DNA from: an uncultured Acidimicrobiia bacterium
Lineage (GTDB): Bacteria > Actinomycetota > Acidimicrobiia > Spongiisociales > JAENVV01
NCBI GenBank assembly: GCA_963835515.1
Contig: CAWIFX010000043.1
Span: 118,261-182,260 of the forward strand
DNA: 64,000 bases
Direction: 5' to 3'
The notes beneath the pieces are model-generated. The model did not search any database and was not told where the DNA came from. It worked only from the letters and a program-made list of their open reading frames with translations. A program made the translations under genes and the position numbers. This document shows, piece by piece, positions 18,577 to 45,100 of this stretch; position 1 is the stretch's first letter, and the number at the start of each line of letters is the position of its first letter.

Positions 18577-19089
18577 ATGAGACAGATGGAAGAGACCCAG
18601 GTCGTTTCCCGACCTGAACGCTTTGACGACTTCTACCGCCGCGAATTCAGGCTGGTAGTTGGTCTGGCATATGTGTTGTCGGGATCGCGCAACAGCGCAG
18701 AGGATCTGGCGCAGGAGGCGTTCATGGCCGCTCATCGCGAGTGGGAGAAACTCCAAGCCTATGACAACCCGGGTGCCTGGGTTCGTCGGGTGGTGGCCAA
18801 CAAAGCAGTTTCTGGCTTCCGTCGTTCGGCTACCGAGATGAAGGCCCTCGCCAAGCTCGCCGCCCGCCGGATCGAACCACTCAACGAGATGGAACCCGAA
18901 GACGCCGAGTTCTGGGGCCATGTCCGTGATCTCCCGAAGCGCCAGTCGCAGGCGATCGCCTTGTTTTATCTCGAGGATCGGCCCGTCGAAGAGATCGCCC
19001 GCATCCTCGGATGCGCAACATCTACCGCCAAGGTACATCTGCACAAGGGACGAGCCAACCTTGCGACGCGCCTGGGGGTGGAGGCATGA
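18577..19089 (+). CDS. ECF (group 4) RNA polymerase sigma-70 factor
   Basis: Region 2 (…EDLAQEAFMAAHREW…) and region 4 HTH (…EIARILGCATSTAKVHLHKGR…). The stop overlaps the start of the downstream gene (ATGA). Confidence 0.85.
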   Translation: MRQMEETQVVSRPERFDDFYRREFRLVVGLAYVLSGSRNSAEDLAQEAFMAAHREWEKLQAYDNPGAWVRRVVANKAVSGFRRSATEMKALAKLAARRIEPLNEMEPEDAEFWGHVRDLPKRQSQAIALFYLEDRPVEEIARILGCATSTAKVHLHKGRANLATRLGVEA

Positions 19090-20039
19090 ACCTCGACGAA
19101 CGCGCTCGCCAGGCCTCGGCCGGACTGCGGGCCACGGTCGCCGCCTCTCCGGTCTCGAGTCCGATCCCCGGTATGGCTCGCTGGGAATGGGTGCCCCGCG
19201 CCCTGGCAGCCGTCGGTACTGCTGCGGCGATAGTCGTCGTCGCCATCCTGACGATCCAGGTTGCTCCTCAGACCCCGGCCCCGATTACCCAGCCCCCGGA
19301 CGGCACGGTCATCCCGGAATTTATCCCACCGGTCGAAGACTCACTGCTCACAACGGATACCACCGAACCGACGACAACGACGTCGGCCAGAGAGGGCGAT
19401 CCGATAGCTCCATCCGGCACCGGGGAGACCGGCGAATCCGGCCAGGTACTCGTCGTTGACACTGAGGCTCCTGCGCTGGTGATCCTTTCGCCGGAGAACG
19501 GCCAGGTCTTTGAAACGGACGTCGTGAGGTTCTCGGGCACTACCGAACCTGGTGCCGCGGTCAGAGCAGGCCGCTACGAGGCAGATGTCTCATCGGACGG
19601 TAAATGGTCGATTGTGCTGGTCTTGAGTCCTGGCTCCAACCGGGCGTTGTTCACCGCTACGGACGAGGCCGGCAACGAAGCTACCGCGCAGGTGGTGGTT
19701 GATTTCAAACGGCCAGTCGCATCAACCACGACGACCAAGCCGAAGAAGGACACGACCACGACGACCAAGGCTGATTTTGTAGAGTTTTCAGCGAACCAGG
19801 TCTACGGGACGTGCCCATCGTCGCCGCCGTTCGATGTCTTCTGGGGCACTGCCCAACCGGGCTCCAAGGTGATTGTCACGTCCGATTACGGTAGCGGCTC
19901 GGTCCTTGCCAACGCCGACGGGGGTTGGGAGCTGCGCGTGGAGTTCCCGGAAGCTCCCGCCGACGTTTTCTTCCTCGTGACCGCCAAATCCGTGGCTACG
20001 GGTCGGGCCAAGTCGTTCGAGTTCGCCTACAAGCCCTAG
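19086..20039 (+). CDS. Anti-sigma factor: single TM, extracytoplasmic Ig-like plus one 'FxANQ…FPEAPA' repeat domain
   Basis: Translationally coupled to the ECF sigma (ATGA overlap). Short cytoplasmic N-terminus, TM helix (ALAAVGTAAAIVVVAILTI), and an ectodomain homologous to the 17039..18418 product. Confidence 0.7.
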   Translation: MNLDERARQASAGLRATVAASPVSSPIPGMARWEWVPRALAAVGTAAAIVVVAILTIQVAPQTPAPITQPPDGTVIPEFIPPVEDSLLTTDTTEPTTTTSAREGDPIAPSGTGETGESGQVLVVDTEAPALVILSPENGQVFETDVVRFSGTTEPGAAVRAGRYEADVSSDGKWSIVLVLSPGSNRALFTATDEAGNEATAQVVVDFKRPVASTTTTKPKKDTTTTTKADFVEFSANQVYGTCPSSPPFDVFWGTAQPGSKVIVTSDYGSGSVLANADGGWELRVEFPEAPADVFFLVTAKSVATGRAKSFEFAYKP

Positions 20040-20164
20040 GCATCCAGGTCGTGATCCAGGTTTCCTTTCGCTCCGTATAACCGTGCGGACCAAAAGAGGA
20101 AATCATTAACGATTCACAGGCGCTACCCGAACAAACCACAAAACGGCTGCGGACGTTCAACCTC

Positions 20165-20878
20165 GTGATGGGAGCGGCCCATCTCATTCAATCGATCGCG
20201 GTCCTGTTCCTCGCCAACGACTTCTCGCTTCCGGTGGTCGGCTCCTTCCTGTCCGGCCCGCCTGGATCGGGGGATTTCGAGGTTGTCAACCTGTTTGATG
20301 TGCGAGTGGCCTACGGGGTTGCTGGCTTCCTGTGGCTTTCGGCAGCTGCCCATTTCCTCGTGGCGTCGCCGGGTATCAACGATTGGTACAACCGGAATTT
20401 GGCACAACGTCGCAATTACGCTCGATGGATCGAATACTCGATCAGCTCATCGTTGATGGTCGTGCTGATCGCCATGCTCACTGGTATCGCCGAAGTGTCG
20501 GCACTTGTAGTCATCTTTGGCGTGAACGCGTCGATGATTCTCTTCGGATGGCTCATGGAAAAGTATGAGCAGCCCGGCTCGACCAACTGGCTCTCATATT
20601 GGTTCGGAGTTATTGCTGGCCTGTTTCCCTGGCTGGCTATCGGCATCTATCTCTGGACACCTGGGTCGGAGTCGTCACCTCCAGGGTTCGTCTATGCGAT
20701 CTTTGTCTCGCTCTTCGTGTTCTTCAACACGTTTGCGGTGAACATGGTGCTCCAGTACCGCCAGACCGGCAAGTGGCGTGACTACATCTACGGGGAGCGC
20801 GCCTACATCTGGTTGAGCCTGCTCGCTAAGTCAGCCCTCGCCTGGCAGGTATTCGGAGGAACCCTCGCCACCGGGTAG
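20165..20878 (+). CDS. Heliorhodopsin (7-TM retinal-binding protein with inverted topology)
   Basis: 237 aa with 7 TM helices. Matches hallmark heliorhodopsin blocks recalled from HeR 48C12: RW(I/V)EYS(I/L)SSS with the counterion Glu, FGVNASMILFGW, GERAYI(W/V)LSL(L/V)AKSALAWQ(V/I)F with the Schiff-base Lys in TM7, and (P)GFVY(A/G)I. Confidence 0.8.
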   Translation: MMGAAHLIQSIAVLFLANDFSLPVVGSFLSGPPGSGDFEVVNLFDVRVAYGVAGFLWLSAAAHFLVASPGINDWYNRNLAQRRNYARWIEYSISSSLMVVLIAMLTGIAEVSALVVIFGVNASMILFGWLMEKYEQPGSTNWLSYWFGVIAGLFPWLAIGIYLWTPGSESSPPGFVYAIFVSLFVFFNTFAVNMVLQYRQTGKWRDYIYGERAYIWLSLLAKSALAWQVFGGTLATG

Positions 20879-20917
20879 TGGCGTTTCAGTTCTGCTGGTG
20901 TTGGGTAAGCCCCGTCC

Positions 20918-21571
20918 ATGGGCGTATTCGAGCTGGATCGGGATGAACAGGGTCGGGGCGTAGCTCCTCAGGAGCTTCGTTGGGCGTTGGCTGGCGGAGC
21001 GCTGGTCGCCATTTTCGGATTCGGAATGATGGCTATCGCCGGTGGTATCTCCTCGTTCGAAGCCCGCAATCTGCTCGACGCAGCCCTTCCAACCATTCGA
21101 TTCCTCGCCTCGACGCTGGTCGCCGCCTCGACAACGATCCTTGCGCTGATGCTGGCGCTCATCGGCATCACGGCCAGCCACGACGCCAACTTCAAACCGG
21201 GATTCTTCAAACGCATACGACAGATCTCGACGCTGTGCATCCTGCTTCTCGCAGGTTCGGCACTGCTGTTGCTGTTCCTGACGGTCCCGATCGACGAGGC
21301 GGAAGGAATACAGCGTCGCTACGAAATCGTCTACTACCTCGTACTGGCCGGGGCAGCTGCCTCAACCGGGATGCTCGTGACGGTCATGCTGATGCTTCGA
21401 TATGCGGTCGAAGGAGTTATCGACGTGTTGACGCCCGGTGCCGACAGTCCGTTCGTGATGGATGAGGAAGACGCCGACGAAGGACACGAAGAAATCTCGG
21501 CGTTGGTCACTGACCCGACCACTCCCGTGGTGAGTGAGGCCGAGCTAGTTAGCGATCGAAACGCGAATTGA
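20918..21571 (+). CDS. Hypothetical polytopic membrane protein (acidic C-terminal tail)
   Basis: 4-5 TM helices. An internal ~75-nt stretch (21170-21245) recurs at 93% identity at 31741-31815. Confidence 0.5.
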   Translation: MGVFELDRDEQGRGVAPQELRWALAGGALVAIFGFGMMAIAGGISSFEARNLLDAALPTIRFLASTLVAASTTILALMLALIGITASHDANFKPGFFKRIRQISTLCILLLAGSALLLLFLTVPIDEAEGIQRRYEIVYYLVLAGAAASTGMLVTVMLMLRYAVEGVIDVLTPGADSPFVMDEEDADEGHEEISALVTDPTTPVVSEAELVSDRNAN

Positions 21572-21928
21572 CGACGACCGCTCGTTCGACTCGAAAGTGA
21601 TATCGGTAGCCACCGATCCCAGCACCATGCCCCCGATGGAATCACTCCAATCGACAGGGGGCCATGCGTCGGCCGATGTTTCTACTGACATGACGAACTC
21701 AACTGTGTGGGCGTTCCCTGCCAGAGCCGTACGGAGGGTGGTGTCGGTCGCCAGATCTAGGAGCGCCGTAGCGGATTCATCAATGGCCAGGCCAAGGTCC
21801 TCGACCCGGTCATAACCGAGGCCGGCCAGGTCGGCGGCTCGATTCGCCATGGACCGGACCACCCGTACCATCGCCGGATGGCCGGGCAGTTCCACAATCA
21901 TTGTCTCCGGGGTCGCAGGGTGTTCCAT
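21545..21928 (-). CDS. Anti-sigma regulatory factor, RsbW/UsfX-like with degenerate ATPase motifs
   Basis: ~128 aa with fold-level resemblance to GHKL anti-sigma kinases (…DLGLAIDESATALLD…), but the N-box Asn/His are absent. Divergent from the STAS gene. Confidence 0.45.
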   Translation of the reverse strand: MEHPATPETMIVELPGHPAMVRVVRSMANRAADLAGLGYDRVEDLGLAIDESATALLDLATDTTLRTALAGNAHTVEFVMSVETSADAWPPVDWSDSIGGMVLGSVATDITFESNERSSSIRVSIAN

Positions 21929-21966
21929 GGCTCGTATACTACGGCACCATCCAAGGGGAGGTCTCG

Positions 21967-22302
21967 TTGACACATCTAACGATTGAACAAAGTGAATCGA
22001 ACGGCAAGTGTGTCCTGACTACCGTCGGAGAGATTGACCTGGCCTCAGCGCCAGATCTGGAAAGTCGGCTCAGCCAGTGCTTGGGTGACGGACCGGTGGT
22101 AGTCGACCTGTCAGCGGTTTCCTTTATCGATTCGACCGGGCTGCGCGTACTCCTGGCTGCTCACTCGGGGGCCGGTGATGGCGGTAACGAGCTCGGACTC
22201 GTCGTGACCGACGGTCCCGTCACCAAACTCTTGTCGATAACGGGTGTTGATGGACACCTGAATATCTTCCGATCGGTGGATGCCGCCAGTTCTGATGCGT
22301 AA
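21967..22302 (+). CDS. STAS-domain anti-sigma-factor antagonist (RsbV/SpoIIAA-like)
   Basis: …VDLSAVSFIDSTGLRVLL… is the STAS signature with the phosphorylatable Ser in DST. TTG start preceded by AAGGGGAGG RBS. Confidence 0.75.
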   Translation: MTHLTIEQSESNGKCVLTTVGEIDLASAPDLESRLSQCLGDGPVVVDLSAVSFIDSTGLRVLLAAHSGAGDGGNELGLVVTDGPVTKLLSITGVDGHLNIFRSVDAASSDA

Positions 22303-22684
22303 TCAGCCTGACGGTCCCTTTAAGCTGATAATCCCAAGCAGCGCGGATCACGTCGCCACGGCTCGCTTGTTCATCGCCAGTCTGGGAAGGACGCTCGGAC
22401 TGCATGCCGAGGTGATCGATGATCTGCGGTTGGCTGTCTCGGAAGCCGTAACTGCCGCGATTCTTTCCGCCCGGTCATCCGAAGTCACCATCAGTGGGAC
22501 GATCGGCCCCGAAGGCGTCTCGGTGCGAGTTGGGCCGCTCTCTGACAATGGTGCCGCAGGCGAACCCGCCCCAACCGATCAGCCCTCCCTCGATCTCGGA
22601 TCGATCGTTCGGGCGCTTTTTCACAACGCTGCGTTTGAAGGAGATACGTTGGTTATTGCCGTCTCGTGGCGACCGCCCACATGA
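22295..22684 (+). CDS. Anti-sigma regulatory factor, RsbW-like (degenerate ATPase motifs)
   Basis: Overlaps the STAS stop (ATGCGTAA) and the sigma start (ATGA). …DDLRLAVSEAVTAAIL… is an N-box-like region lacking Asn/His. Confidence 0.5.
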   Translation: MRNQPDGPFKLIIPSSADHVATARLFIASLGRTLGLHAEVIDDLRLAVSEAVTAAILSARSSEVTISGTIGPEGVSVRVGPLSDNGAAGEPAPTDQPSLDLGSIVRALFHNAAFEGDTLVIAVSWRPPT

Positions 22685-23409
22685 CCGGTTCGGTCGAACA
22701 CGAGAACTGGTTCGACCGGCGCGACGATCCTGACGTCAGGCGTCAGATCGTTGAACGGTACGACGCGCTCGCCATTGGACTGGCCCAACGATTCCGGGGG
22801 AGGGGCGAGGCGACCGATGACCTGGTTCAGGTTGCTCGATACGGTCTCCTGAAGACTATCGATCGGTTCGACGTATCGGTCGGTGTGCAGTTCTCGACGT
22901 TTGCGACGAAGTCGATTCTCGGCGAGCTCAAACGCCACCTTCGAGACAAGGCTTGGTCGGTCCGGGTTCCGCGGTCGCTGCAAGAGACTTACTTGCGAAC
23001 CGGTCGAACCGTCGAAGAGTTGACCCAGAAACTAGGTCGCTCGCCGACGATTGCCGAGATTGCCGAGGAGCTGGAGATAACGGCTGAAGAAGTCCTCGAC
23101 GCCATGGATGCCGGCTCGGCCTTCACGGCAGCTTCGCTCGACCTGCCGGTCGGCGACGATGACGGTGGCTCAACGCTCGGCGACCTGTTGCCGTTCGAAG
23201 ACGAGATCCTTGGTCGATCAGACGAACGGGCCACGGTGTCGGAACACTTGAAGGCGCTTCCGGAGCGGGAACGGCAAATCATCTATCTCAGGTTCTTCGA
23301 AGCCAAGTCGCAGCGGGAGGTCGCCGACGAACTCGGCATATCTCAGATGCATGTTTCCCGACTCTTGAGGAAAGCTCTGTCGGACCTTCGGGTAGCCATC
23401 GACGCTTAA
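22681..23409 (+). CDS. Group 3 sigma-70 factor, SigB/SigF/SigG family
   Basis: Regions 2.x (…DLVQVARYGLLKTIDRFD…), 3 and 4 (…QREVADELGISQMHVSRLLRKAL…). Last gene of the STAS-RsbW-sigma operon. Confidence 0.85.
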   Translation: MTGSVEHENWFDRRDDPDVRRQIVERYDALAIGLAQRFRGRGEATDDLVQVARYGLLKTIDRFDVSVGVQFSTFATKSILGELKRHLRDKAWSVRVPRSLQETYLRTGRTVEELTQKLGRSPTIAEIAEELEITAEEVLDAMDAGSAFTAASLDLPVGDDDGGSTLGDLLPFEDEILGRSDERATVSEHLKALPERERQIIYLRFFEAKSQREVADELGISQMHVSRLLRKALSDLRVAIDA

Positions 23410-23414
23410 CGAAA

Positions 23415-23443
23415 ATGGGGACGGACCCGGTCCGTCCCCATTC
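23415..23443. terminator. Intrinsic terminator hairpin after the sigB-like operon
   Basis: AATGGGGACGGACC-C-GGTCCGTCCCCATT, a perfect 14-bp stem, followed by a CTTCTACTTTGTTGG T-rich tract. Confidence 0.6.
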
Positions 23444-23461
23444 TTCTACTTTGTTGGTTGG

Positions 23462-23722
23462 CTAGGCAGTCACGCCACGGGACCGGGCAGCCCGGTACAC
23501 GAGCAGGGTCACGATCGAACCTACGATCGAACCGATGATTCCCGAGGCGGAAAGCTCCAGGTTCCCTTCGAACACGAGGGCAGCAAGGGACCCACCAACG
23601 AAAGAACCAACGACGCCGAGCAGGATGGTGCCGAGCACGCCCATCGGGTCGTCACCTGGCACGATGAATCGGGCCAGAGCTCCGGCGATCAAGCCGACGA
23701 TAAGAAACGTAATGATGCCCAT
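23462..23722 (-). CDS. GlsB/YeaQ/YmgE-family small stress membrane protein (transglycosylase-associated protein)
   Basis: ~86 aa with Gly-zipper TM helices (GIITFLIVGLIAGALARFIVPG…) and a GGAGGA RBS. Start taken at the internal ATG. Confidence 0.7.
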   Translation of the reverse strand: MGIITFLIVGLIAGALARFIVPGDDPMGVLGTILLGVVGSFVGGSLAALVFEGNLELSASGIIGSIVGSIVTLLVYRAARSRGVTA

Positions 23723-23880
23723 GATTGATCCTCCTATTGGTTGGGCTTTCTTGTTGCCGGCCTGTACCCCGTGTCCTGGGAATCCAAACATGGTTCTTCT
23801 TCCTTTTCGGTGTTCTTTCTCTCCACGTTTGAAGCCTCGCTTGGAGGGGTAGGACAGGCCTACCTAGTGGAGGGCATTGG

Positions 23881-24909
23881 ATGTTGGATGAGCGTGACCG
23901 GGTTGACGTTCCTGAGCGGTTGAATGGCCCGGCAATTGCCGAGATGAAGAATGTGTCGAAGGTCTTCGCCTCGGGCGATGGCGTTCACGGCATCAATCTT
24001 TCGATTCCAAGCGGTTCCATCTTCGGTTTCATCGGTCCGAGCGGCTCGGGCAAGACGACCACCGTGAGACTGCTCACCTCGATCCTCGAGCCCACCGAAG
24101 GCGACGTGCGGGTCATGGACGAGGATCCGTCGAAATTCACTGAAGAGACCCGCAGTCGGATCGGCTACATGCCGCAGCGGTCGGTGCTCTACCCCAACTT
24201 GTCGGTTTGGGAGAACCTGCGATTCTTCGCGTCTCTGTACGGGATCGGTCGGGATCGGTCCCCACTCGACAAAGTGCTCGAGCTCGTCGAGCTTGATAGT
24301 CACGATCGCAAAAGGGTGTCGCAGATCTCGGGAGGGATGCGCCGACGGCTGAGTCTCGCCGCGGCCCTGGTTCATGATCCCCAGCTGATTTTCCTAGACG
24401 AACCCACTGCCGGAATCGACCCGGTGCTGCGGCGCAAGATGTGGGACCACTTCGAGTCGCTTCGTTCCGAAGGACGGACGCTGTTCGTGACGACTCAGTA
24501 CGTAGGCGAAGCGGCGTACTGCGACTATGTCGGCGTGCTGGCTGAGGGTCGTTTGCTACTCGTTGACACGCCTACCGGTCTTCGTCATGCCGCGTTCGGT
24601 GGCGATGTCCTACATGTTGACTTCCCGGCGCCGCCGACCCGTGACCTGGTCGCCCGGATCGCCACCGCTGTCGGCGCATCGGATCATGGATTTCTATCAG
24701 GACGCCGGGTGCGCTTTGTCGTGGAGGAGGCTTCCGAGGCCCTCCCGTTGTTGGGTGCATTCGTGAGCGACGAAGGTGTCGAGGTCGACGCCTTTGAAGA
24801 ATTCCTTCCTCCCTTCGACGACGTCTTTGTAGAGCTGATCGAGCAGCATCGGGCGAACGATTCGACGTTGGACGAAAGTGAAGAATCAGGCGAGCTGGTC
24901 CATGTTTAG
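23881..24909 (+). CDS. ABC transporter ATP-binding protein (ABC-2 exporter type) with C-terminal extension
   Basis: Walker A GPSGSGKTT, signature SGGMRRRLSLA, Walker B LIFLDEPTAGID. Confidence 0.85.
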   Translation: MLDERDRVDVPERLNGPAIAEMKNVSKVFASGDGVHGINLSIPSGSIFGFIGPSGSGKTTTVRLLTSILEPTEGDVRVMDEDPSKFTEETRSRIGYMPQRSVLYPNLSVWENLRFFASLYGIGRDRSPLDKVLELVELDSHDRKRVSQISGGMRRRLSLAAALVHDPQLIFLDEPTAGIDPVLRRKMWDHFESLRSEGRTLFVTTQYVGEAAYCDYVGVLAEGRLLLVDTPTGLRHAAFGGDVLHVDFPAPPTRDLVARIATAVGASDHGFLSGRRVRFVVEEASEALPLLGAFVSDEGVEVDAFEEFLPPFDDVFVELIEQHRANDSTLDESEESGELVHV

Positions 24910-26374
24910 CACCAACGGATTCATTCGCTCCTGGGCTTTCTTCCGCAAGGAAGTCGCTGAGCTGGTGCGCCAGCCCAAGCTGGTTGTCACGCTCGTGCTG
25001 GCTCCCTTCTTGATCCTGGCCCTTTTCGGCGCCGGCTACCGGCAAACGAATGGTCCGCTCCGAACGATCTTTGTGTCGGCGGATGAGGAGACCTTTCAGA
25101 CCGTGATAGAACCGCGCCTTGCCGAGCTTGGGAACGCGCTGGAGTCGGCCGGAGTCACCGGGTCGCGCGACTCTGCCATCGGAATGCTTCGGAGCGGGGA
25201 AGTCGACGTCGTGGTCGTCGTGCCCGACGACCCGGAGGCGACCATCCGCACCAACGAGCAAGCTGTCTTTGAAGTACTCCACGATCAGCTTGACCCATAC
25301 GAGCGAGCCACGATCGGCCTCATAACTCAGGCTGCCGTCGACGCAGTAAACCGGTCGATTCTTGAGGAGCTCGTTGCCGAAGGCCAGGTCCGGTCCGACG
25401 ACGCGGCCCTAACCGAAGCGCGTCAGACAAGTACGGCGTTGCGAGCAGCCATGGAGCAGGGTGATCAGCTTGCGGCTCGGAACGAGCGGAACCGACTCAT
25501 GGAGCAGCTGGACGCTTGGGCATCAGCCGACGCTGGGAACGGTTCGAGCGGACTCGAATCGGAGGAGGCCGGTTCGAACCCAACCGTGTTGCGCGACCGC
25601 GCCCAGCAGCTCGACGTTTCAAGTCAGGATTCATCCGAACTTGAAACCGTCAGGTCACTCGAAGCGGACCTGATAGAACTCGACGATGCGGCCGCAGAGT
25701 TTCGTTCCATCGAGCCGACGGTGATCGTAAGCCCGTTTGAAGTGGCCACCGACCTGGTTGGCTCGACCGAACTCAGCGTGACCGACTTTTATGCGCCCGG
25801 GGTAATTGCCCTGCTTCTCCAACATCTGGCGATCACCTTTGCCGGCTTGTCGCTCGTCCGCGAACGTGCGCTCGGTACGACGGAACTGTTCAAGGTTGCT
25901 CCGTTGCGCGCCACGCAGATGCTCGTGGGAAAGTACCTCGGCTATGCAGTTGTTGCTGCCGTCGTAGCGGTTGCTTTGAGCGGCCTCATGTTCTGGGGGT
26001 TCGGCGTTCCGTTCCTGGGGTCAGTCGCCGACTATGCCATTGTCCTGGCGCTGCTGGTGGTGGCGTCGCTCGGGGTTGGGTTCGTCGTTTCGTCCGTGGT
26101 CTCGTCCGATACCCAGGCGGTGAATGCCTCAATGATCATGCTGCTGATGAGCATCTTCTTCTCTGGCTTCTTCCTTTCCATCGAGCGGCTCGTGCCAGAA
26201 GTTCAGGCCGTGTCTTGGGCGCTGCCGATTACGCACGCCCTTGACAGCCTGCGCGATGTCCTGTTTCGGGGGTCCGGGATCGATCTGCGCACCACATTCG
26301 CTCTTGGGGGTGGTGCCCTTGCCCTGTTCGTCGCCGCCGCTGTCCTTACCCACCGCCGCTTAGCGGCAGACTGA
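24902..26374 (+). CDS. ABC-2 family permease with large extracytoplasmic loop between TM1 and TM2
   Basis: N-terminal TM, a ~230-aa periplasmic/coiled-coil loop, then 5 C-terminal TM helices. Overlaps the ATPase gene by 8 nt. Confidence 0.8.
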   Translation: MFSTNGFIRSWAFFRKEVAELVRQPKLVVTLVLAPFLILALFGAGYRQTNGPLRTIFVSADEETFQTVIEPRLAELGNALESAGVTGSRDSAIGMLRSGEVDVVVVVPDDPEATIRTNEQAVFEVLHDQLDPYERATIGLITQAAVDAVNRSILEELVAEGQVRSDDAALTEARQTSTALRAAMEQGDQLAARNERNRLMEQLDAWASADAGNGSSGLESEEAGSNPTVLRDRAQQLDVSSQDSSELETVRSLEADLIELDDAAAEFRSIEPTVIVSPFEVATDLVGSTELSVTDFYAPGVIALLLQHLAITFAGLSLVRERALGTTELFKVAPLRATQMLVGKYLGYAVVAAVVAVALSGLMFWGFGVPFLGSVADYAIVLALLVVASLGVGFVVSSVVSSDTQAVNASMIMLLMSIFFSGFFLSIERLVPEVQAVSWALPITHALDSLRDVLFRGSGIDLRTTFALGGGALALFVAAAVLTHRRLAAD

Positions 26375-26385
26375 AGAGGCCTCCC

Positions 26386-26886
26386 ATGTTTTCATTAAGC
26401 CCGGTTCCCCCCGGCGACCTAACCCAAGCCCGAATCGAGGGCCTTGCCGAAGATGCAGTACCCGGAGACGTGGCGGTCGAACTCGAGCATTGGGATGTCA
26501 AAGGCTGGTTCATCGATGTCACATTCGGCGTGCTGGCCGTTGTAGCCGGCGTGGCCGGTCTGGTCCTCCCGTTTCTGCCGGGATGGGCTCCGATCATCGG
26601 AGGAGTCGTGCTTTTGGCAGGCCGCATTCCGCCGCTCCGCCGCTTGCTGAGCCGCTTCATCATGCTCTCGCCGTGTCAGGGATTCCTCGATCGGTTGGCC
26701 CGGAATCCGAAACTGAGAAAGGTGATGGCCAAGGCACTCCTCCGCAAGAAAGTTCGCAGCGCCGTTGAGCCGAATGCCCGGCGTGAAATGGTAAATATCC
26801 TGGTCCGCAACGACGCCGAGAAGGCGGGGACCGGAGAAACGAATGCAAACACCGATCAAGCCTACGGCGGGGATAAGATGGTCTAA
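26386..26886 (+). CDS. PGPGW-type small membrane protein
   Basis: Two TM helices with the LPFLPGW motif and a basic C-terminus. Confidence 0.45.
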   Translation: MFSLSPVPPGDLTQARIEGLAEDAVPGDVAVELEHWDVKGWFIDVTFGVLAVVAGVAGLVLPFLPGWAPIIGGVVLLAGRIPPLRRLLSRFIMLSPCQGFLDRLARNPKLRKVMAKALLRKKVRSAVEPNARREMVNILVRNDAEKAGTGETNANTDQAYGGDKMV

Positions 26887-27836
26887 TGGATTGGTATCTG
26901 GACGACGGCGACAGCGAAGGCGCCACGGTCATCCGTCGCGAATTCGTCGATTATCTTCGCCGGCATGCCGACCCGTCCTCCGAGATTGATCTCGCCGCTC
27001 TGGCTTTCGCTGAGCTGGTCAACAACGGAGTGGAACACGCCGGAGGCCCGGTTTGGGTCTCGGTCGACTGGGCAGGTCGTCATCCGATCGTCTCAGTCAA
27101 TGATCTCGGGTCTTCCTTCCAGATGAGCGAGGTTGCAATGCCTGACCCAACCGCGGTCAGGGGACGAGGTCTAGCCATCGCCGCTGATCTGGCCGCCAGG
27201 CTCGAGGTGGCTCAAAAAGCCGGCGGCGGTGCCCGGGTTGAGGCCGAACTCAACGTTGATCGAGGTGACCAGCAGGATCTGGATCCGCCGCGCCGCACCC
27301 GCAACGTGCTCCCTGATTTAGCCGAAGCCGGTCCGGACGGTTTCGGCAGAGAGTCCTTCCTTCGGTCACTGGTGGTCCAAATGGCACAGGGGGTCGAACA
27401 CGCTCTCGGACCCATGGCGGCGGAGTCGGCGGTTGCCCAGGTGGGCGCCGATGTGGGTGGCCAGATGGAGACCGAGTTTCGATCGAGTCACCCCGGGCTT
27501 CGTGAGCTCATGACCCCCACCGAGACTGGCGACTGCTATGTGCGGCTCAAGCAAGCCATCGGTGGTGATTTCTACGTGCTGGAGGCCGACGAGGATCGAA
27601 TCGTTTTGGCCAATCGGGCGTGTCCGTTCGGTGAGGCAGTCCTGCGAGCTCCTGCGCTATGCCGGATGACTTCGAGTGTTTTCGGGGGAATCGCGGCTCG
27701 CAATTTTGGTGAGGCGACCGTGGTGCTTGAGGAGCGGATCGCGGTTGGCGACCCGGCGTGCCGCGTCGTTGTCTACCTCGGCGAGCAACCCGAGATTCCG
27801 CACGGGCATCGCTACCAGGCGCCAGTCCGTACCTAA
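26886..27836 (+). CDS. RsbW-type GHKL ATPase (anti-sigma regulatory factor-like) fused to a C-terminal V4R (4-vinyl-reductase-type small-molecule-binding) domain
   Basis: Intact N-box ELVNNGVEHAGG and a G-box-like region in the N-terminus. The C-terminus (…ANRACPFGEAVLRAPALCRMTSSVFGGIAARNFGEATVVLEERIAVGDPACRVVV…) fits the V4R Cys pattern. Confidence 0.6.
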   Translation: MDWYLDDGDSEGATVIRREFVDYLRRHADPSSEIDLAALAFAELVNNGVEHAGGPVWVSVDWAGRHPIVSVNDLGSSFQMSEVAMPDPTAVRGRGLAIAADLAARLEVAQKAGGGARVEAELNVDRGDQQDLDPPRRTRNVLPDLAEAGPDGFGRESFLRSLVVQMAQGVEHALGPMAAESAVAQVGADVGGQMETEFRSSHPGLRELMTPTETGDCYVRLKQAIGGDFYVLEADEDRIVLANRACPFGEAVLRAPALCRMTSSVFGGIAARNFGEATVVLEERIAVGDPACRVVVYLGEQPEIPHGHRYQAPVRT

Positions 27837-28798
27837 GCCAAGTAGTCTTCGGCGCCTTCCCTCACCGTCGCGTCGACGATCGCCGGACCATCTCCAACGA
27901 CGGCTAGAACAGCTCGCACCAATGATGATGCTGTCGGACTCCCGGCTGCCTCGGATCGGCGCTGTTGCCAGTCTGCCTGGTCGCGGAGAATGGCAGGCTC
28001 GTCGCACAGCAACGCGGCATTGAGGCATCGCAGCATCCAGACACCATCGAGAACCGCCTCGGTGGGCAGGTTCTTGATGGTGTCAGATAGCCGGGCTGCC
28101 AGCCTGTGGATCCGCAGGTCGAGCCATTCAAACCCTTCGGAGCGCTCGTGCGTGACGGGACCGACTGGAGCGGCCGGAACCTTCACAGATTCGATGGCTC
28201 GGCCGAGGTCCCGGATGTCGCGGCCGTATGCGTTGGCTCCCAGCAGTAGGGCGCGTTCGGCGGTCACGGCCGACCCGCCCATCACCACGGGCGTTCCCGA
28301 TTCGCGGGCAGTTGCCGCCATGCGACGAGCGCCAGGCAGGTTGCCGACCATCTGGCAGGACACGGTTATGCATCGGGGTGCCAGCTCGTGCAGAAAGGGG
28401 AGGAGCTGGCCGGGTGGGATCGGACCGTCCAGCGTGACAGTCTCAAAGCCTTGTGAACGGAGAGCTTGGGAAACCATTGAGAGACCCAACGTATGCCACT
28501 CGCCCTCGGCGCTCGTGACGAGAACCTCGCCAGGGGCGGTGGACTCCCGATCCACGTCGAGTAAACCGATCGTCTGCGACGTTATCGCCGTTGCACGATG
28601 CTCCTGGGCAACATTCCAGACGCCGCTTTCCCATTGAGACCCAACCCAATGTTGGGCCGGCGCAAGTAGCAGATCCATCAGCTCCGGTATCGCCATCCCG
28701 CCGGCGAGGGTCTGGTCGACCTGCGCCTTGAATGCCCGTGCGTCGAATCGGTTGAGCGCGTCGATGAGGTCGGTGCGGATGGCTTCGACAGCCGTCAT
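27833..28798 (-). CDS. Stand-alone cobalamin (B12)-binding domain protein, CarH/LitR C-terminal-module-like (no DNA-binding domain)
   Basis: N-terminal four-helix B12-binding-2 cap (…WVGSQWESGVWNVAQEHRATAI…) and a Rossmann B12-binding domain with an E-x-H-x-x-G variant of the DxHxxG motif (EGEWHTLGL). Overlaps the upstream PP2C gene stop by 4 nt. Confidence 0.65.
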   Translation of the reverse strand: MTAVEAIRTDLIDALNRFDARAFKAQVDQTLAGGMAIPELMDLLLAPAQHWVGSQWESGVWNVAQEHRATAITSQTIGLLDVDRESTAPGEVLVTSAEGEWHTLGLSMVSQALRSQGFETVTLDGPIPPGQLLPFLHELAPRCITVSCQMVGNLPGARRMAATARESGTPVVMGGSAVTAERALLLGANAYGRDIRDLGRAIESVKVPAAPVGPVTHERSEGFEWLDLRIHRLAARLSDTIKNLPTEAVLDGVWMLRCLNAALLCDEPAILRDQADWQQRRSEAAGSPTASSLVRAVLAVVGDGPAIVDATVREGAEDYLA

Positions 28799-30459
28799 AA
28801 AGCTGTGATCGCCAGAACGGTGATGTCGTCTTGGGACTTGCCGGCCGACCAGCCGTCAACTGCTGAAGCAATGGCATTCGAGATGGCCTTCGCTCCTGAG
28901 GCCGCCGCTGCGGAAGCGGTCTCGGCCAACCGATCCCGGCCGAACTCCTCTACGCCAAGACGGGCTTCGATGACCCCATCTGAGAACAGAAGCAGGGTAT
29001 CGCCGGGTGACAGTACGCCAGTGGTCGGGATCCACTCGGCGTCATCCATGAAGCCGAGTAGGACGCCGTGTGCATCGATGTCGCGTGTGGTGCCATTCGC
29101 GCAGATCACCATGGGGGCCGGGTGGCCGGCGGATGAGACCGAGTAGCGATGAGTGCCATCAGGGTCGGTGTCGATCTGGGCCAATACCAAGCTCGCGAAC
29201 GGGCGATTGTCCTGGGAACGGAGCATCTGGTTGATCGTACGGATAGTCGTGTCGGGGCAGCTACCGGCCAATGAGGCTGCTTTGACGGCCGAACGCATGA
29301 GTCCGGCCTGGGCAGCCGCGACAATGCCCTTCCCGGTCATATCGCCGATGGCCGCTATCGACCTGGTCGGGGACAGGGCGAAACAATCGTAGAAATCGCC
29401 TCCGAGAAGGGAAAGGTTCGTGGCGGCCTGGTAACGGGCAGAGGTCTCGAAAGATATGGGGGCCTCGAGAATGGTGGGTCGCACGGACGACACCAGTAAA
29501 TTCGTTACCGAAGCCTGTTCTTGAAAGAGCGCTGCATTGTCCAGGGCCACGGCCGCCCGGCGGGTGATGGCCGTGATCAGGGCGAGGGCCCGATCCGACC
29601 AAACTCCATCGTCACGTTCGACGAGGACGCTGCCGATTCTGACGCCTCGAGCCGCGATCGGGACGACCGTTCCGGATGCACTTGGGGATCTCGCCGGGTG
29701 GGGGGTCATCTCGGTGAGTTCGTCGTAGCCGACCTTACCCGATGCGTGGGCCAGTCGGTGCTCGGTAAGTTCCTTGAGCCTGCCCAGGGTCACGAGACGA
29801 CCCTGGTTGTTCGAGACGGCGGTCGCCACCTGTCCAGACAGAGCATCGGTTTGAAGATCGACCGTGCATCGATCCGCCAGGCTGGGTGCGATCAAGCCAG
29901 CCAAACGGTCAAGAATCCGGTCGACATTCAGTGCTCCCGAGAAGCTATCGCTGGCTTCGATGAGAAGAGCCAGATCCTGTTCGGTGGCGGTACGGGCGGC
30001 GTCGGCTGCCCGCTCGGCGATGCGCAGGCGGTCCCGTTCCAGTTCGACAGAGCTGCGTTCCGTGACGTCGTACACGACCCCGTAACCCGCCACGGGGACA
30101 CCATCCTCGACCTCGATGTGGCCTTGACCCTCGACCCACCTCACCACCCCCGACGGGTGGATGATGCGATGCTTGGTCGTGTAGTCCCCTCCGCGTTCGG
30201 CGAGACCCGCAACCAGTCCCGTGACGTCCTCGAGGTCATCGGGATGGATGAGCGCCGAGTATTCCTCGAATGTCCCGGCAAATCCGGTGTCCGTCACCCC
30301 GTAAATGCGCCGGGTGGTTTCGTCCCAGTTCACCTTGCCGGAGGCTGGGTTCCAACTCCACGTTCCGATGCCTGCAGCCGAGAGCAGGGCAGCCAGGTCG
30401 GGTGGTAGACGATTTGAAGGTGGCACGACAAGATCATAGGCGTTAGGCGGAGAGCCCAT
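28795..30459 (-). CDS. PAS-GAF-PP2C (SpoIIE/RsbU/RsbP-like) serine phosphatase
   Basis: N-terminal PAS (…WSWNPASGKVNWDETTRRIYG…), central GAF, and C-terminal PP2C metal-binding blocks (…GGDFYDCF…IGDMTGKG…FSDGVIEA…DDITVLAI…). Confidence 0.8.
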   Translation of the reverse strand: MGSPPNAYDLVVPPSNRLPPDLAALLSAAGIGTWSWNPASGKVNWDETTRRIYGVTDTGFAGTFEEYSALIHPDDLEDVTGLVAGLAERGGDYTTKHRIIHPSGVVRWVEGQGHIEVEDGVPVAGYGVVYDVTERSSVELERDRLRIAERAADAARTATEQDLALLIEASDSFSGALNVDRILDRLAGLIAPSLADRCTVDLQTDALSGQVATAVSNNQGRLVTLGRLKELTEHRLAHASGKVGYDELTEMTPHPARSPSASGTVVPIAARGVRIGSVLVERDDGVWSDRALALITAITRRAAVALDNAALFQEQASVTNLLVSSVRPTILEAPISFETSARYQAATNLSLLGGDFYDCFALSPTRSIAAIGDMTGKGIVAAAQAGLMRSAVKAASLAGSCPDTTIRTINQMLRSQDNRPFASLVLAQIDTDPDGTHRYSVSSAGHPAPMVICANGTTRDIDAHGVLLGFMDDAEWIPTTGVLSPGDTLLLFSDGVIEARLGVEEFGRDRLAETASAAAASGAKAISNAIASAVDGWSAGKSQDDITVLAITAL

Positions 30460-30502: not shown

Positions 30503-31489
30503 ATGTCGGGCCTATGGGAGAAAATTCAGGAGCGGATCGCGCCGCTGTTGGCCGTCGTGGAACGGTATGGCAGCGATCATGGCGCCCGGTTGGCCGCGTC
30601 GTTGGCCTATCGAGCGGTTTTCGCCCTGGCTCCCTTGCTGCTCGTCGCCGTTTCTGTAGCTGGATTCGTGTATGGGACGGCAGATGCCCAGGCTCGCCTG
30701 GTTGCAGAGATCCAACCGTATGTCGGCGCAGAAGCCTCATCATTGGTTTTTGATTTGCTCGATCAGGCAGCGGCGAGTCGCAACTCGACGGGCATCATCG
30801 GGCTCCTGCTCATGACGTGGACGGCGAGCGCCTTGTTCCTGGAAGCACAGGGCTCGCTCAATCTCATTTTCGGGTCGGATCCGACCCCCAAAGGCGGGGT
30901 AGGGGCGTGGATTCTCAGACGAGCCCTGGCGGTCGCGGCCGCCCTATCGATGGGAGTTGTCCTGCTCGTGGTGATCGGCTCTGGGGCGGCCTGGGGCATG
31001 GTCGAATCGCAGGTTGACCTTGCCGAACCGGTCAAGCAGGTATTGGATTGGCTCACACCCGTCGTGGCATGGCTGGTTCTCGCGGGACTGTTCACGATTG
31101 TCTTCCGGTTCGTCCCGAGTCGCGACATTCCGTGGCGAGGTGCCAGGATTGGTGGAGCAATCACCGCGGTCGGGTTTGCGGTCGCCTCGCTGGTCATCGG
31201 CAGCTATTTCAACCCGGAGCGGTTTACTGGCACCGGCTTTGCCGGTGGTTTCGTACTGATTCTCTTCAGCGTTTACGTACTCGCCCAGGTTGTGTTGTTT
31301 GGCGCCGAAATCATTGATGTGCATCTGATCCATGACGCTCAGGCGCCGGTTGAGGAGGCGGCGGCCCCGTTTGCCCCAACAATGCCAACCACCGCTGCAA
31401 ACGATCCGGGAGCGACGCCGGTCGGATGGTTCGCAGCCGGGCTGGCAGTTGGGGCGTATCTGGTGGCGAGGATTCGGCCCGAGAAATAG
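30503..31489 (+). CDS. YihY/BrkB (ribonuclease BN-like) family membrane protein
   Basis: …SLAYRAVFALAPLLLVAVS… and six TM helices. Its 3' ~250 nt are part of repeat copy A. Confidence 0.8.
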   Translation: MSGLWEKIQERIAPLLAVVERYGSDHGARLAASLAYRAVFALAPLLLVAVSVAGFVYGTADAQARLVAEIQPYVGAEASSLVFDLLDQAAASRNSTGIIGLLLMTWTASALFLEAQGSLNLIFGSDPTPKGGVGAWILRRALAVAAALSMGVVLLVVIGSGAAWGMVESQVDLAEPVKQVLDWLTPVVAWLVLAGLFTIVFRFVPSRDIPWRGARIGGAITAVGFAVASLVIGSYFNPERFTGTGFAGGFVLILFSVYVLAQVVLFGAEIIDVHLIHDAQAPVEEAAAPFAPTMPTTAANDPGATPVGWFAAGLAVGAYLVARIRPEK

Positions 31490-31943: not shown

Positions 31944-33302
31944 CTAGACGACGCCGTAGGCGAGCATGGCATCGGCGACCTTGACGAAGCCGGCGATGTT
32001 TGCGCCCTTGACATAGTCGATGTGATCGGTTCCTGGTGAACCCCCGTACTCGACACAACGCCCGTGGATCGCGGCCATGATGTCGACGAGGTGCTTCTGG
32101 AGCTCGTCTTCTTTCCATGAGATGCGTGCCGAGTTCTGGCTCATCTCGAGGCCCGACACCGCAACACCACCGGCATTGGCCGCCTTGCCAGGAGCAAACA
32201 GGGTCTGGGCATTCTTGAAGCAGTGCACGCCGTCGAGATCCGTCGGCATATTTGCACCCTCGGACACGGCCTTGACGCCGTTGGCGACAAGCGTTTCGGC
32301 GTCGGCGCCGACGAGCTCGTTCTGGGTTGCGCACGGCAACGCAACGTCGCACGGGACCCCCCACGGGCGCTTTCCCTCGTGGTACTCCGAGCCGCTGAAC
32401 TGCTCGGTGTATTCCTGGATACGGCCGCGCCGTTCGCCCTTGAGAGCCTTGACCCATGCGAGCTTCTCTGCGTCGATCCCGGCGGGGTCATGGATGAAGC
32501 CACCCGAGTCCGAGAGCGTGACGGCGGTGCCGCCGAGGTGGTTGATCTTTTCGACCGCGTGCAATGCGACATTGCCCGAGCCGGAGACGACGCACGTCTT
32601 TCCTTCGACGCTGTCGCCGATATGCGTGAGCATGTTCTCGAGGAAATACACCGCGCCGTGGCCGGTCGCCTCGGTGCGGATGAGGCTGCCGCCGAACTCG
32701 AGGCCCTTGCCGGTCAGCACGCCCGTGAAGTGGTTGGTAATGCGTTTGTACTGCCCGAACATGTAGCCGATCTCTCTTGCCCCGACGCCGATGTCACCGG
32801 CCGGCACATCGATGTCGGCGCCAACATGGCGGTAGAGCTCGGTCATGAACGACTGGCAGAAGCGCATTACCTCGTGGTCGCTCTTGCCGCGGGGATTGAA
32901 GTTCGATCCGCCCTTGCCTCCGCCCATCGGCAAACCCGTGAGGCTGTTCTTGAACGTCTGCTCGAACGCCAGGAACTTGAGCACGCTCTCGGTCACCGAA
33001 GGATGGAAGCGCAGACCGCCCTTGTACGGGCCAATCGCATTGTTGTTCTGCACGCGCCAGCCGCGCTGAACTCGAATGTTGTTGTTGTCGTCTTCCCAGC
33101 AAACCCGGAAACTCACGACCCTGTCCGGCTCGGCGATGCGGCGAAGGATCTGGTACTCGTGGTACTCGTCCTTGTCCAATGTGTAGTCGAACACATCTTC
33201 GGCAACTTCTTGCACGGACTGCACGAATTCGGGCTGGCCCGGATTCCGCTTGCGCACCCCTTCGATGAACTGCGCGAGATCCGCATGCTCAGTAGCGGTC
33301 AT
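31944..33302 (-). CDS. gdhA: NADP-specific glutamate dehydrogenase
   Basis: Glu/Leu/Phe/Val dehydrogenase signature (…LPMGGGKGGSNFNPRGKSD…) and NAD(P)-binding GxGNVA (SGSGNVALHA). Start at internal ATG with AAGGGGGAA RBS; a GTG 60 nt upstream is an alternative. Confidence 0.9.
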   Translation of the reverse strand: MTATEHADLAQFIEGVRKRNPGQPEFVQSVQEVAEDVFDYTLDKDEYHEYQILRRIAEPDRVVSFRVCWEDDNNNIRVQRGWRVQNNNAIGPYKGGLRFHPSVTESVLKFLAFEQTFKNSLTGLPMGGGKGGSNFNPRGKSDHEVMRFCQSFMTELYRHVGADIDVPAGDIGVGAREIGYMFGQYKRITNHFTGVLTGKGLEFGGSLIRTEATGHGAVYFLENMLTHIGDSVEGKTCVVSGSGNVALHAVEKINHLGGTAVTLSDSGGFIHDPAGIDAEKLAWVKALKGERRGRIQEYTEQFSGSEYHEGKRPWGVPCDVALPCATQNELVGADAETLVANGVKAVSEGANMPTDLDGVHCFKNAQTLFAPGKAANAGGVAVSGLEMSQNSARISWKEDELQKHLVDIMAAIHGRCVEYGGSPGTDHIDYVKGANIAGFVKVADAMLAYGVV

Positions 33303-33448
33303 TAGTTCCCCCTTCGAGACCACGGACGTACCCGCAATGGCTGCCGACAGTACCAGTCGCACCTCACCACCGCATCGGGCCGACTCTCCAGAGGGTCAGT
33401 TCGAGGATCGTAGATGGCTCCGAGTATCGGTATTCCACACAGAGTACG

Positions 33449-45039: not shown

Positions 45040-45100
45040 GACTGAGCACCCTACCGGCGGTCGTCAAACGGAAACCGACAAGGAAACGAATGTTGAAAGT

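Follow-up and report, generated by a model that had tools for sequence, protein, structure and literature searches.

Standalone photocobilins, which combine B12-binding domains with a photoglobin domain, are the closest described relatives of the predicted light sensor discussed here. In the light state, photocobilins activate a partner enzyme by protein–protein interaction, and the photocobilin of Saccharothrix syringae (SasPcob) has been linked to STAS and SpoIIE proteins and to a "cell stress response" (PMC10979010). The same paper, which defined standalone photocobilins, explicitly left their physiological role unresolved. Actinobacterial B12-photoglobin operons are also known to carry genes for PAS-GAF-SpoIIE, STAS and standalone HATPase proteins, whose coordination was stated to be unknown (PMC8717448). 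We analyzed a 64-kb stretch of DNA from an uncultured Acidimicrobiia bacterium (contig CAWIFX010000043.1; hereafter "the window"), in which a studied interval of about 10 kb contains a gene for a predicted photocobilin, a sigma factor with partner-switching regulators, and a heliorhodopsin (HeR) gene.

We consider it probable that this interval consists of two adjacent, separable units. Unit A (18577–20878) would comprise an extracytoplasmic function (ECF) sigma factor, an anti-sigma-like Glucodextran_B protein and the heliorhodopsin, a grouping that we favor. Unit B (20883–30459) is, on balance, a conserved partner-switching module with the photocobilin and a PP2C phosphatase as its input arm. 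A first-pass annotation, made from the sequence alone, had described a multi-input partner-switching and sigma-factor module beside the heliorhodopsin, and such a module is indeed present in the window. Its heliorhodopsin, STAS, sigma, B12-binding and PAS/PP2C domain calls were reproduced by Pfam and NCBIfam profile searches of the window proteins, on which the domain assignments below are based. It did not mention the genes for a four-transmembrane (4-TM) protein, GlsB, an ABC-2 exporter and a PGPGW-like protein, the C-terminal domain of the photocobilin, or the ECF sigma and Glucodextran_B genes upstream.

The window photocobilin has the same three-domain architecture, photoreceptor motifs and full-length fold as SasPcob (8J2W/8J2X), at an identity of only ~26–27%. 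The Saccharothrix photocobilin gene also follows a SpoIIE/PP2C gene directly, overlapping it by 4 nt, and STAS genes are nearby. By contrast, a local SigB/F/G sigma factor, two predicted pseudokinases, a MetOD1-fused kinase, candidate promoters and a small putative regulon are present in the window and missing from the Saccharothrix locus, and searching PMC8717448 and PMC10979010 for the relevant terms turned up no description of them. The first-pass annotation's claim of a previously undescribed wiring is thus weakened with respect to the association of B12, PP2C and STAS genes, which is already reported and is not new. The present analysis adds the full local circuit with its sigma factor, the separation of predicted pseudokinase anti-sigma proteins from a kinase fused to a sensor, the promoter motif and a putative set of local target genes.

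In the RsbP/RsbQ (RsbU/RsbT)–RsbV–RsbW–SigB system of Bacillus subtilis, a PAS-PP2C phosphatase is likewise encoded together with a small controlling accessory protein, and there is likewise a STAS protein with a phosphorylatable Ser, a GHKL anti-sigma factor, a SigB-family sigma and GTTT...GGGTA promoters. The accessory protein is an alpha/beta hydrolase in B. subtilis, but a putative B12/bilin photoreceptor in the window. Also unlike B. subtilis, the window's sigma-adjacent RsbW-like proteins lack ATP motifs, and the apparently intact kinase is a separate, sensor-fused paralogue under predicted sigma control. The SigF–UsfX(RsbW)–RsfA/RsfB system of Mycobacterium tuberculosis offers an actinobacterial parallel, in that a SigB/F/G sigma is paired with an RsbW-like anti-sigma factor whose N-box is also without the Mg-binding Asn (LAVDEVCTRLIRSA in 8IH8 versus LAVSEAVTAAILSA in the window); the similarity of UsfX to the window's RsbW-like protein is weak (E=0.2). 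We know of no photoreceptor or V4R-like kinase in the mycobacterial SigF system. CarH and LitR (including LitR–LitS) have the same B12-binding_2/B12-binding core and W-x9-EH/ExH motifs as the photocobilin. Unlike them, the photocobilin has no MerR or helix-turn-helix (HTH) domain, has a photoglobin domain, and has a phosphatase rather than DNA binding as its predicted output. True HTH-B12 proteins adjoin HeR genes in other genomes.

The features of unit B and its right flank are listed below; L-numbers denote compared loci (L010–L014, L095–L104 and others) and P-numbers denote HeR homologues.

20883–20907, + strand: candidate SigB/F-type promoter GTTT-N16-GGGTA before the 4-TM gene (motif scan)
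20918–21571, + strand: 4-TM membrane protein (TM217), with orthologues in L014, L095, L096 and L102–L104
21545–21928, - strand: second RsbW-like protein (dRsbW), 127 aa, with weak RsbW/RsbA NCBIfam matches
21901–22302, + strand: STAS anti-sigma-factor antagonist (Pfam STAS, E=7.6e-19; NCBIfam TIGR00377)
22295–22684, + strand: RsbW-like anti-sigma protein (RsbW129), 129 aa (HATPase_c_2 in 22280–22684, E=1e-9)
22681–23409, + strand: SigB/SigF/SigG-family sigma, 242 aa (TIGR02980 and Pfam sigma-70 regions 2, 3 and 4, in 22666–23409)
23414–23442, + strand: strong hairpin terminator with a 13-bp stem, ending the STAS-RsbW-sigma operon
23462–23722, - strand: GlsB/YeaQ/YmgE (Transgly_assoc) stress membrane protein (NCBIfam PRK10457, E=1.8e-15)
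23765–23789, - strand: candidate GTTT-N16-GGGTA promoter of GlsB (motif scan)
23827–23851, + strand: candidate GTTT-N16-GGGTA promoter of the ABC-2/HK-MetOD1 operon (motif scan)
23881–24909 and 24878–26374, + strand: ATPase and permease of an ABC-2 exporter (Pfam ABC_tran, ABC2_membrane_3)
26386–26886, + strand: small PGPGW/DUF456-like membrane protein (weak Pfam PGPGW match)
26886–27836, + strand: HK-MetOD1, RsbW-type GHKL kinase with a MetOD1 sensor (Pfam HATPase_c_2 and MetOD1)
27833–28798, - strand: predicted standalone photocobilin, 321 aa (Pfam B12-binding_2 and B12-binding; fold match)
28795–30459, - strand: PAS_3-(GAF)-PP2C (SpoIIE-type) phosphatase (Pfam SpoIIE, E=4.7e-39; PAS_3)
30503–31489, + strand: BrkB/YihY membrane protein (Pfam), the right flank of the variable interval and the same flank in L011, L014, L095 and L096

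The photocobilin and its phosphatase

The protein encoded at 27833–28798 matches B12-binding_2 (four-helix bundle, E=3.7e-10) and B12-binding (Rossmann domain, E=1.1e-17) in Pfam, and has an extra C-terminal domain of ~120 aa. Compared with PDB sequences using phmmer, it matches 8J2W with E=1.7e-25 across residues 6–303, and the two characterized photocobilins rank first among the solved structures. An AlphaFold2 (AF2) model based on 18 homologues (predicted local distance difference test score, pLDDT, 91.8; predicted template modeling score, pTM, 0.89) has helices at residues 220–320, in line with the five-helix, globin-like photoglobin domain. The Foldseek template modeling score normalized by the query (TMq) is 0.86 to 8J2Y and 0.80–0.82 to 8J2W/8J2X over ~330 columns; that to CarH is ~0.52 and spans the first ~200 residues only.

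The motifs of CarH-type photoreceptors that bind adenosylcobalamin (AdoCbl), W56-x9-E66-H67 and E100-x-H102, are invariant or nearly so in 18 sequences, and align with Trp61, Glu71-His72 and His108 of SasPcob. W277 is invariant and aligns with the bilin-contacting Trp296 of SasPcob. Given the full-length match in sequence and fold to photocobilins and the invariant AdoCbl motifs, the protein is, judging by sequence and modeled structure, a standalone photocobilin (B12 domains plus photoglobin domain) with predicted cofactor binding. Its chromophores are probably AdoCbl plus a bilin. The first-pass annotation had called it a CarH-like B12 module lacking a DNA-binding domain. The motifs and the lack of such a domain are borne out: Pfam finds no HTH or MerR domain, B12-binding_2 begins at residue 9, and the NCBIfam CarH profile scores 57.6 bits against a cut-off of 400, at profile positions 81–271 only. 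What the earlier description left out is the photoglobin domain, which would make this a full photocobilin.

Elsewhere in the window (6090–9593, - strand) is a gene for a class II (AdoCbl-dependent) ribonucleotide reductase with a TSCPD domain, so the organism uses AdoCbl, which is presumed to be the chromophore of the photocobilin. None of the window open reading frames (ORFs) scanned was a gene for heme oxygenase or retinal synthesis.

The phosphatase has all of its metal-binding motifs (GGDFYD, GDMTGKG, SDGVIE and DDIT). Of the PAS-GAF-PP2C architecture assigned earlier, PAS_3 and SpoIIE are clear, and GAF falls short of its cut-off of 22.4 bits (18.2 bits; E=0.0039). The photocobilin start does overlap the PP2C stop, as previously noted; the overlap is ATGA (4 nt), and this coupling is retained as far as Saccharothrix. 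In S. algeriensis, the genes occur in the order SpoIIE-photocobilin-STAS with the same 4-nt overlaps. This locus (L105, 10001–11951) continues from the photocobilin and STAS genes to a second, convergent STAS gene, and its two antagonists are accompanied by no local sigma, RsbW or HK-MetOD1 gene.

Among 80 metagenomic photocobilin-like loci, we found PP2C in 29, STAS in eight, a SigB-like sigma in six and HK-MetOD1 in three. At 13 of the 39 metagenomic loci with enough upstream sequence, a PP2C gene immediately precedes the photocobilin gene and is read in the same direction. At seven metagenome loci (L121, L122, L124, L127, L132, L151 and L152), an ECF sigma gene follows the photocobilin-like gene, and in L061 an ECF sigma gene (8145–8756, - strand) is divergent from a photocobilin-HeR pair. 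This photocobilin–ECF context is like LitR–LitS, although the B12 protein, unlike LitR, has no HTH.

Sigma factor, regulators and candidate promoters

The sigma factor exceeds the TIGR02980 (SigB/F/G) cut-off, with 267 bits versus 234.35, and the STAS protein exceeds that of TIGR00377, with 67 bits versus 53.45. The STAS start is likely near 21961–21967, giving about 111 aa. Its FIDSTGLRVL sequence, which holds the phosphorylatable Ser/Thr, does not vary among five orthologues from module loci. Tight operon coupling by ATGA and ATGCGTAA overlaps, as claimed before, can be read directly in the sequence: the STAS/RsbW129 overlap is ATGCGTAA and the RsbW129/sigma overlap is ATGA.

Two degenerate RsbW-like proteins had been proposed. 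The first, RsbW129, is supported by its HATPase_c_2 match. It aligns with B. subtilis RsbW over the N-terminal ~55 aa only, and its N-box is SEAVTAAILSA, versus SEACTNAVQHA in B. subtilis RsbW. For the second, the 127-aa dRsbW on the minus strand, divergent from STAS, the matches are weak (NCBIfam RsbW/RsbA, E about 1e-4) and there is no Pfam match. This protein is kept in every orthologous locus that covers its position (L014, L095, L096 and L102), aligns with the RsbW129 family around D..L..E and has no N-box Asn. G boxes were found neither in RsbW129 nor in the dRsbW family, and both proteins are predicted to be kinase-dead pseudokinases.

By its motifs, HK-MetOD1 alone in the module retains an intact GHKL ATP site: E43, N47, D73-x-G75 and G93-x-G95 are invariant in 28 homologues of 53–90% identity. 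No other protein of the module is a plausible STAS kinase, a role that is predicted for HK-MetOD1. An RsbW-V4R fusion had been reported for this gene. The fusion of a GHKL kinase to a sensor is confirmed, but V4R (PF02830) is not matched at E<=0.1, and the second domain is instead MetOD1 (PF18546, E=5.8e-14), described as V4R-related via three conserved cysteines (PMC5847659). Within this domain, C246-P-F-G, C259, C292 and H308 are invariant in the same 28 homologues. The C-terminal half of the AF2 model matches the PoxR/MopR V4R sensor (TMt about 0.52), Bet3 and H-NOX folds, and the sequence itself matches nothing in the PDB at E<=1. We considered whether HK-MetOD1 might be a constant companion of photocobilin; this was rejected, as the family has 1609 matches and an unrelated context in Micromonospora.

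GTTT...GGGTA is the SigB/SigF-type promoter consensus. The pattern GTTT-N16-GGGTA has four matches in the window, versus 1.03 expected, and three of the four are intergenic within the module, in the correct orientation and just upstream of genes. In L014, L095, L096, L098 and L100 the motif is again present at the orthologous positions, and its spacers have diverged. The copy before the 4-TM gene begins 5 nt past the HeR stop, and is at the same position in L014, L095 and L096, the last of which has no HeR. Those of GlsB and of the ABC-2 operon are both kept in L095, L096, L098 and L100. In L014, which has no ABC genes, the motif stands directly before HK-MetOD1, and in L102 it precedes a ferritin/DUF2383 operon. 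No such motif was found before HeR, the STAS operon or the PP2C-photocobilin operon, even with relaxed patterns. A scan for sigma-70 promoters between 18.3 and 31.6 kb gave no sites versus 2.7 expected, which is uninformative.

The fourth match in the window (44350–44374, - strand) is in or near the 3′ part of an ORF for an Rce1-like CAAX protease (44233–45063, - strand). In L098 (5517–10132) and L100 (6326–11729), an operon of PAP2-PAP2-DAGK-BrkB-(PPK2)-PLD genes is inserted in the module behind the motif. This inserted lipid operon hints that the sigma regulon is tied to membrane-lipid remodeling.

The module is conserved well beyond the window. L095 (photocobilin 75% identical) is fully syntenic, HeR included. 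L096/L097 (59%) have the whole module, i.e., 4-TM, dRsbW, STAS, RsbW, sigma, GlsB, ABC-2, small membrane protein, HK-MetOD1, photocobilin, PP2C and BrkB, with no HeR at the corresponding position and unrelated ABC genes and UPF0182 instead. L098 and L100 (46–50%) retain PP2C-photocobilin-HK-MetOD1-ABC and GlsB-sigma-RsbW around the inserted lipid-enzyme operon. A compact version, dRsbW|STAS-RsbW-sigma-PP2C-photocobilin|HK-MetOD1-4TM, occurs in L102–L104 (33%), again without HeR; here the 4-TM gene is directly upstream of HK-MetOD1. L109, L175 and L177 also count toward conservation of the module without HeR. The module is therefore an independently conserved unit that persists to 33% photocobilin identity, and its sub-modules are separable.

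Among the individual genes, GlsB orthologues in related loci belong to Pfam Transgly_assoc, the ABC-2 exporter is kept in L095, L096, L098, L100 and L109, and the PGPGW-like gene has an orthologue in every locus with ABC genes. The 4-TM protein matched no Pfam or NCBIfam family. To the right of the module, a hybrid histidine kinase of 1241 aa (several PAS, HisKA, HATPase_c, two REC and Hpt domains) is encoded at 34191–37913 (+ strand). It adjoins BrkB and the module in L095 and L096/L097; in the window, glutamate dehydrogenase (31944–33362, - strand) and small ORFs separate it from them.

Heliorhodopsin and its neighborhood

The features of unit A are as follows.

18577–19089, + strand: ECF sigma factor, 170 aa (Pfam Sigma70_r2 and Sigma70_r4_2)
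19011–20039, + strand: Glucodextran_B/Big_13 protein (Pfam), anti-sigma-like by position
20054–20077, + strand: promoter-like element before HeR, a block invariant in the window, L095, L014 and L010
20102–20878 (canonical GTG at 20165), + strand: heliorhodopsin (Pfam PF18761, E=5.8e-99)

The HeR assignment is secure, with a Pfam score of 330.8 bits versus a cut-off of 26.7, coverage of profile positions 7–242 of 242, and 7848 homologues at E<=1e-10. Two residues show no variation among 29 HeRs, namely K222 (in AKSALAWQ) and E90 (in RWIEYS). We take these residues to be the Schiff-base Lys of transmembrane helix 7 and the counter-ion Glu of helix 3, presumably equivalent to K241 and E107 of HeR 48C12. 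From the canonical GTG at 20165 the protein would have 237 aa, versus 250–260 aa in homologues. Upstream of this GTG, the same frame encodes the N-terminus that is conserved among HeRs (KRLRTFNLV), and no ATG, GTG or TTG occurs in the HeR frame between a stop at 20078 and position 20165. There is a strong Shine–Dalgarno sequence, AAGAGGA, at 20092–20098, followed by ATC (20102) and ATT (20105). HeR thus likely starts at a non-canonical ATC or ATT after AAGAGGA, the alternative being an N-terminally truncated protein.

The order ECF sigma-GlucB-HeR on one strand is kept in L010–L014 and L095, and in L010–L013 and L095 the ECF sigma gene preceding HeR also encodes 170 aa. The true start of the Glucodextran_B gene probably overlaps the ECF sigma stop; we infer its anti-sigma role from its position only. 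Between this gene and HeR, the element cATCCrG-N10-GCTCCGTAt is invariant in the window, L095, L014 and L010, while its flanks diverge. Its CGTA is similar to ECF -10 regions, and we regard the element as promoter-like and ECF-like, with a predicted promoter function, so that HeR may be a member of an ECF sigma regulon.

The pattern by itself (ATCC-N-CCGTA) is no rarer than chance. We also considered an autoregulatory ECF promoter common to the ECF gene and HeR: GCTCCGT precedes both in the window and L095, but it does not precede the ECF gene in L010–L013, and this idea was rejected. Because the pattern is neither rare nor shared in L010–L013, we keep it only as a conserved element and assign it to no particular sigma. 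The ATCC...GCTCCGTAT element is directly upstream of HeR, and is conserved with the ECF sigma-GlucB-HeR trio.

The first-pass annotation proposed that HeR is part of, or co-regulated with, the partner-switching module, a reading that the comparison does not support. Adjacency of the module to HeR is confined to the window, L095 and L014, whose HeRs are 84–100% identical, and the two sides have separate promoter-like elements. L014 (P0004, HeR 84%) has HeR, 4TM, dRsbW, STAS, RsbW, sigma and HK-MetOD1, followed directly by BrkB, with neither ABC genes nor a local photocobilin-PP2C pair. There is no module between HeR and BrkB in L010–L013 (P0003, HeR 86%). HeR homologues P0007 and P0008 (77%) have unrelated contexts, and in GCA_041628225.1, the metagenome-assembled genome (MAG) that carries P0008, HeR and the module are on different contigs. 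Gene content between HeR and BrkB is thus variable and takes three or more forms among HeRs that are at least 84% identical. Next to the 77%-identical HeRs, in two otherwise different contexts, are genes for large BTAD-AAA_16-TPR regulators (L002, 360–4028; L006, 10854–14459; L007, 2890–6036), and in L002 a PAS_9 protein and a rhodanese are directly upstream of HeR.

Conservation of the neighborhood, a check proposed with that annotation, largely breaks down on a broader scale. Screening with the window proteins found STAS, RsbW, PP2C and HK-MetOD1 in none of 79 further HeR loci from distinct species, and HeR in none of the 80 metagenomic photocobilin loci. The 79-locus screen is sensitive enough, since the same screen readily found PP2C beside photocobilins. 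Shim et al. list ten HeR neighbor groups, none of them of sigma or partner-switching genes (PMC11109279), and the HeR paper of Bulzu et al. does not mention sigma, B12, MerR or partner-switching genes (PMC8612252). Our data point to a linkage restricted to a single narrow clade as the reason why sigma, STAS and partner-switching genes are missing from these analyses. HeR next to unit B is probably a lineage-specific juxtaposition, in which HeR is a neighbor and not a component of the circuit, and HeR seems from the sequence to be transcribed separately from the module.

In other HeR partner systems (glutamine synthetase, photolyase and the OmrDE ABC transporter), HeR likewise occurs beside candidate partners, and here an ABC transporter is 3 kb away. 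Unlike OmrDE, the window's ABC-2 exporter belongs to the putative sigma regulon. We rejected it as an OmrDE-like HeR partner, given that it stays with the module even without a HeR gene and is preceded by a module promoter.

A proposed light-stress circuit and its alternatives

We think it fairly probable that in unit B a cascade of light sensor and PP2C controls a stress-type sigma factor, with HeR separate. The domain identities are established by the matches given above, and the order of events is modeled on RsbU/RsbP–RsbV–RsbW–SigB logic and on partner activation by photocobilins. First, light would convert the photocobilin, which is probably in a complex with PP2C, given that their genes are translationally coupled. 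The photocobilin would then alter PP2C via protein–protein contact, an effect proposed to be activation. PP2C would dephosphorylate STAS at the invariant DSTG serine. In its unphosphorylated form, STAS would bind the kinase-dead RsbW-like anti-sigma protein(s), freeing the SigB/F/G sigma, which would transcribe the 4-TM gene, GlsB and the ABC-2/PGPGW/HK-MetOD1 operon from the GTTT-N16-GGGTA promoters. Finally, HK-MetOD1 would re-phosphorylate STAS, a sigma-dependent negative feedback that could be gated by a second ligand or metal input via the V4R-like 3-Cys domain.

Several points weigh against this scheme or against a strict separation of HeR. The photocobilin may inhibit PP2C instead of activating it, the action of HK-MetOD1 on STAS is predicted from motifs only, and the mechanism as a whole is predicted from sequence and analogy. 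Because L014 has no photocobilin-PP2C pair, the photocobilin arm is itself separable. The neighbor screens were single-sequence phmmer searches, and many of the contigs are short. Three related loci do place HeR beside the module, and read-through from HeR into the module may occur in view of the gap of only 40 nt between the HeR stop and the 4-TM start, with a weak hairpin of a 6-bp stem. Lastly, homologues of the window's B12-domain gene are present in 11 of the 79 other HeR loci, and a functional theme may link HeR and B12 photoreception.

These B12 genes bear on an alternative that we regard as possible though rather unlikely, namely a shared light regulon. HeR would be an output gene under light-responsive regulators, here the upstream ECF sigma, and the photocobilin module would be another light-responsive unit in the same region. 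The HeR loci in question are L034 (B12 gene at 14–1087), L061 (8750–9880), L067 (8871–9863), L068, L072, L078, L084, L030, L079, L028 and L037. Seven of the genes immediately adjoin HeR on the same strand (binomial P=0.0014 for concentration next to HeR). Five have HTH_17/MerR domains and are of the CarH/LitR type, and those of L034, L061 and L067 have no HTH and match the photoglobin C-terminal profile (three or four such loci). A looser association between HeR and B12 photoreceptor genes is therefore real, and the adjacency suggests light-regulated HeR expression.

That "MerR family regulator" is one of the ten published HeR neighbor groups (PMC11109279) fits such a regulon, as do the conserved ECF sigma-GlucB-HeR trio with its ECF-like element, the ECF sigma genes beside photocobilin-like genes in L061 and in seven metagenomic loci, and the parallels with LitR–LitS and CarQ–CarR. 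On the other hand, not every relative demonstrably has the ECF-like element before the ECF sigma gene as well, its pattern is not rare, and the anti-sigma label of GlucB is positional only.

It is improbable, in our view, that the photocobilin-like protein is a chemical sensor (of cobalamin or bilin availability, or of redox state) or a constitutive PP2C subunit instead of a photoreceptor. The B12-binding fold is common to non-photoreceptor corrinoid proteins, and PP2C has PAS and GAF-like sensor domains of its own. An Asp or Glu precedes a conserved GVW, and its alignment to the bilin-binding Asp270 of SasPcob depends on gap placement, leaving the equivalent of this residue ambiguous. In addition, AbPcob is a poor biliverdin binder (PMC10979010). 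Against these considerations stand the invariance of the W-x9-EH and ExH motifs of light-dependent, CarH-type AdoCbl binding and of W277, as well as the fact that the top full-length matches in sequence and fold are two experimentally photoactive photocobilins.

We hold it to be similarly doubtful that HeR is an integrated, co-regulated component of the module, as a second light input or an output, which would make a retinal and B12 light-stress circuit. HeR is on the same strand as the first module gene across the short gap described above, and the adjacency is retained in the window, L095 and L014. Partner-protein binding is a known mode of HeR action (PMC11109279), and HeR genes elsewhere are enriched beside B12 photoreceptor genes. 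Yet the three HeR-adjacent loci are close relatives, effectively representing one evolutionary event. HeR occurs without the module in L011, the module without HeR in L096, and one MAG has them unlinked; the broader screens place them together at none of the 79 HeR or 80 photocobilin loci. Moreover, the module promoter stays in place before TM217 even without a HeR gene ahead of it, and HeR is itself preceded by another conserved element and by no GTTT-N16-GGGTA motif. Least probable is a recruitment of HeR into the photocobilin/sigma module in this Acidimicrobiia sub-clade (e.g., through contacts with 4-TM, dRsbW or HK-MetOD1) or, in a weaker version, a wiring of HeR genes to B12 photoreceptors across monoderm phyla; if true, recruitment would mean a three-chromophore (retinal, AdoCbl and bilin) light-stress circuit and the first signaling partner for a HeR.

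For the biology of heliorhodopsins, the result of the two-unit reading is mainly negative, in that this neighborhood is not a conserved clue to their function. A modest new lead comes from the repeated occurrence of HeR genes beside B12 photoreceptor genes. For the photocobilins, the locus brings a whole predicted circuit together in one place: sensor, phosphatase, antagonist, pseudokinases, kinase, sigma, promoters and a regulon (GlsB, ABC-2, 4-TM and, in some relatives, lipid-remodeling genes). It thereby turns a vague genome-context association into a testable model, in which green or red light would control a general-stress-type sigma factor in non-phototrophic Actinomycetota.

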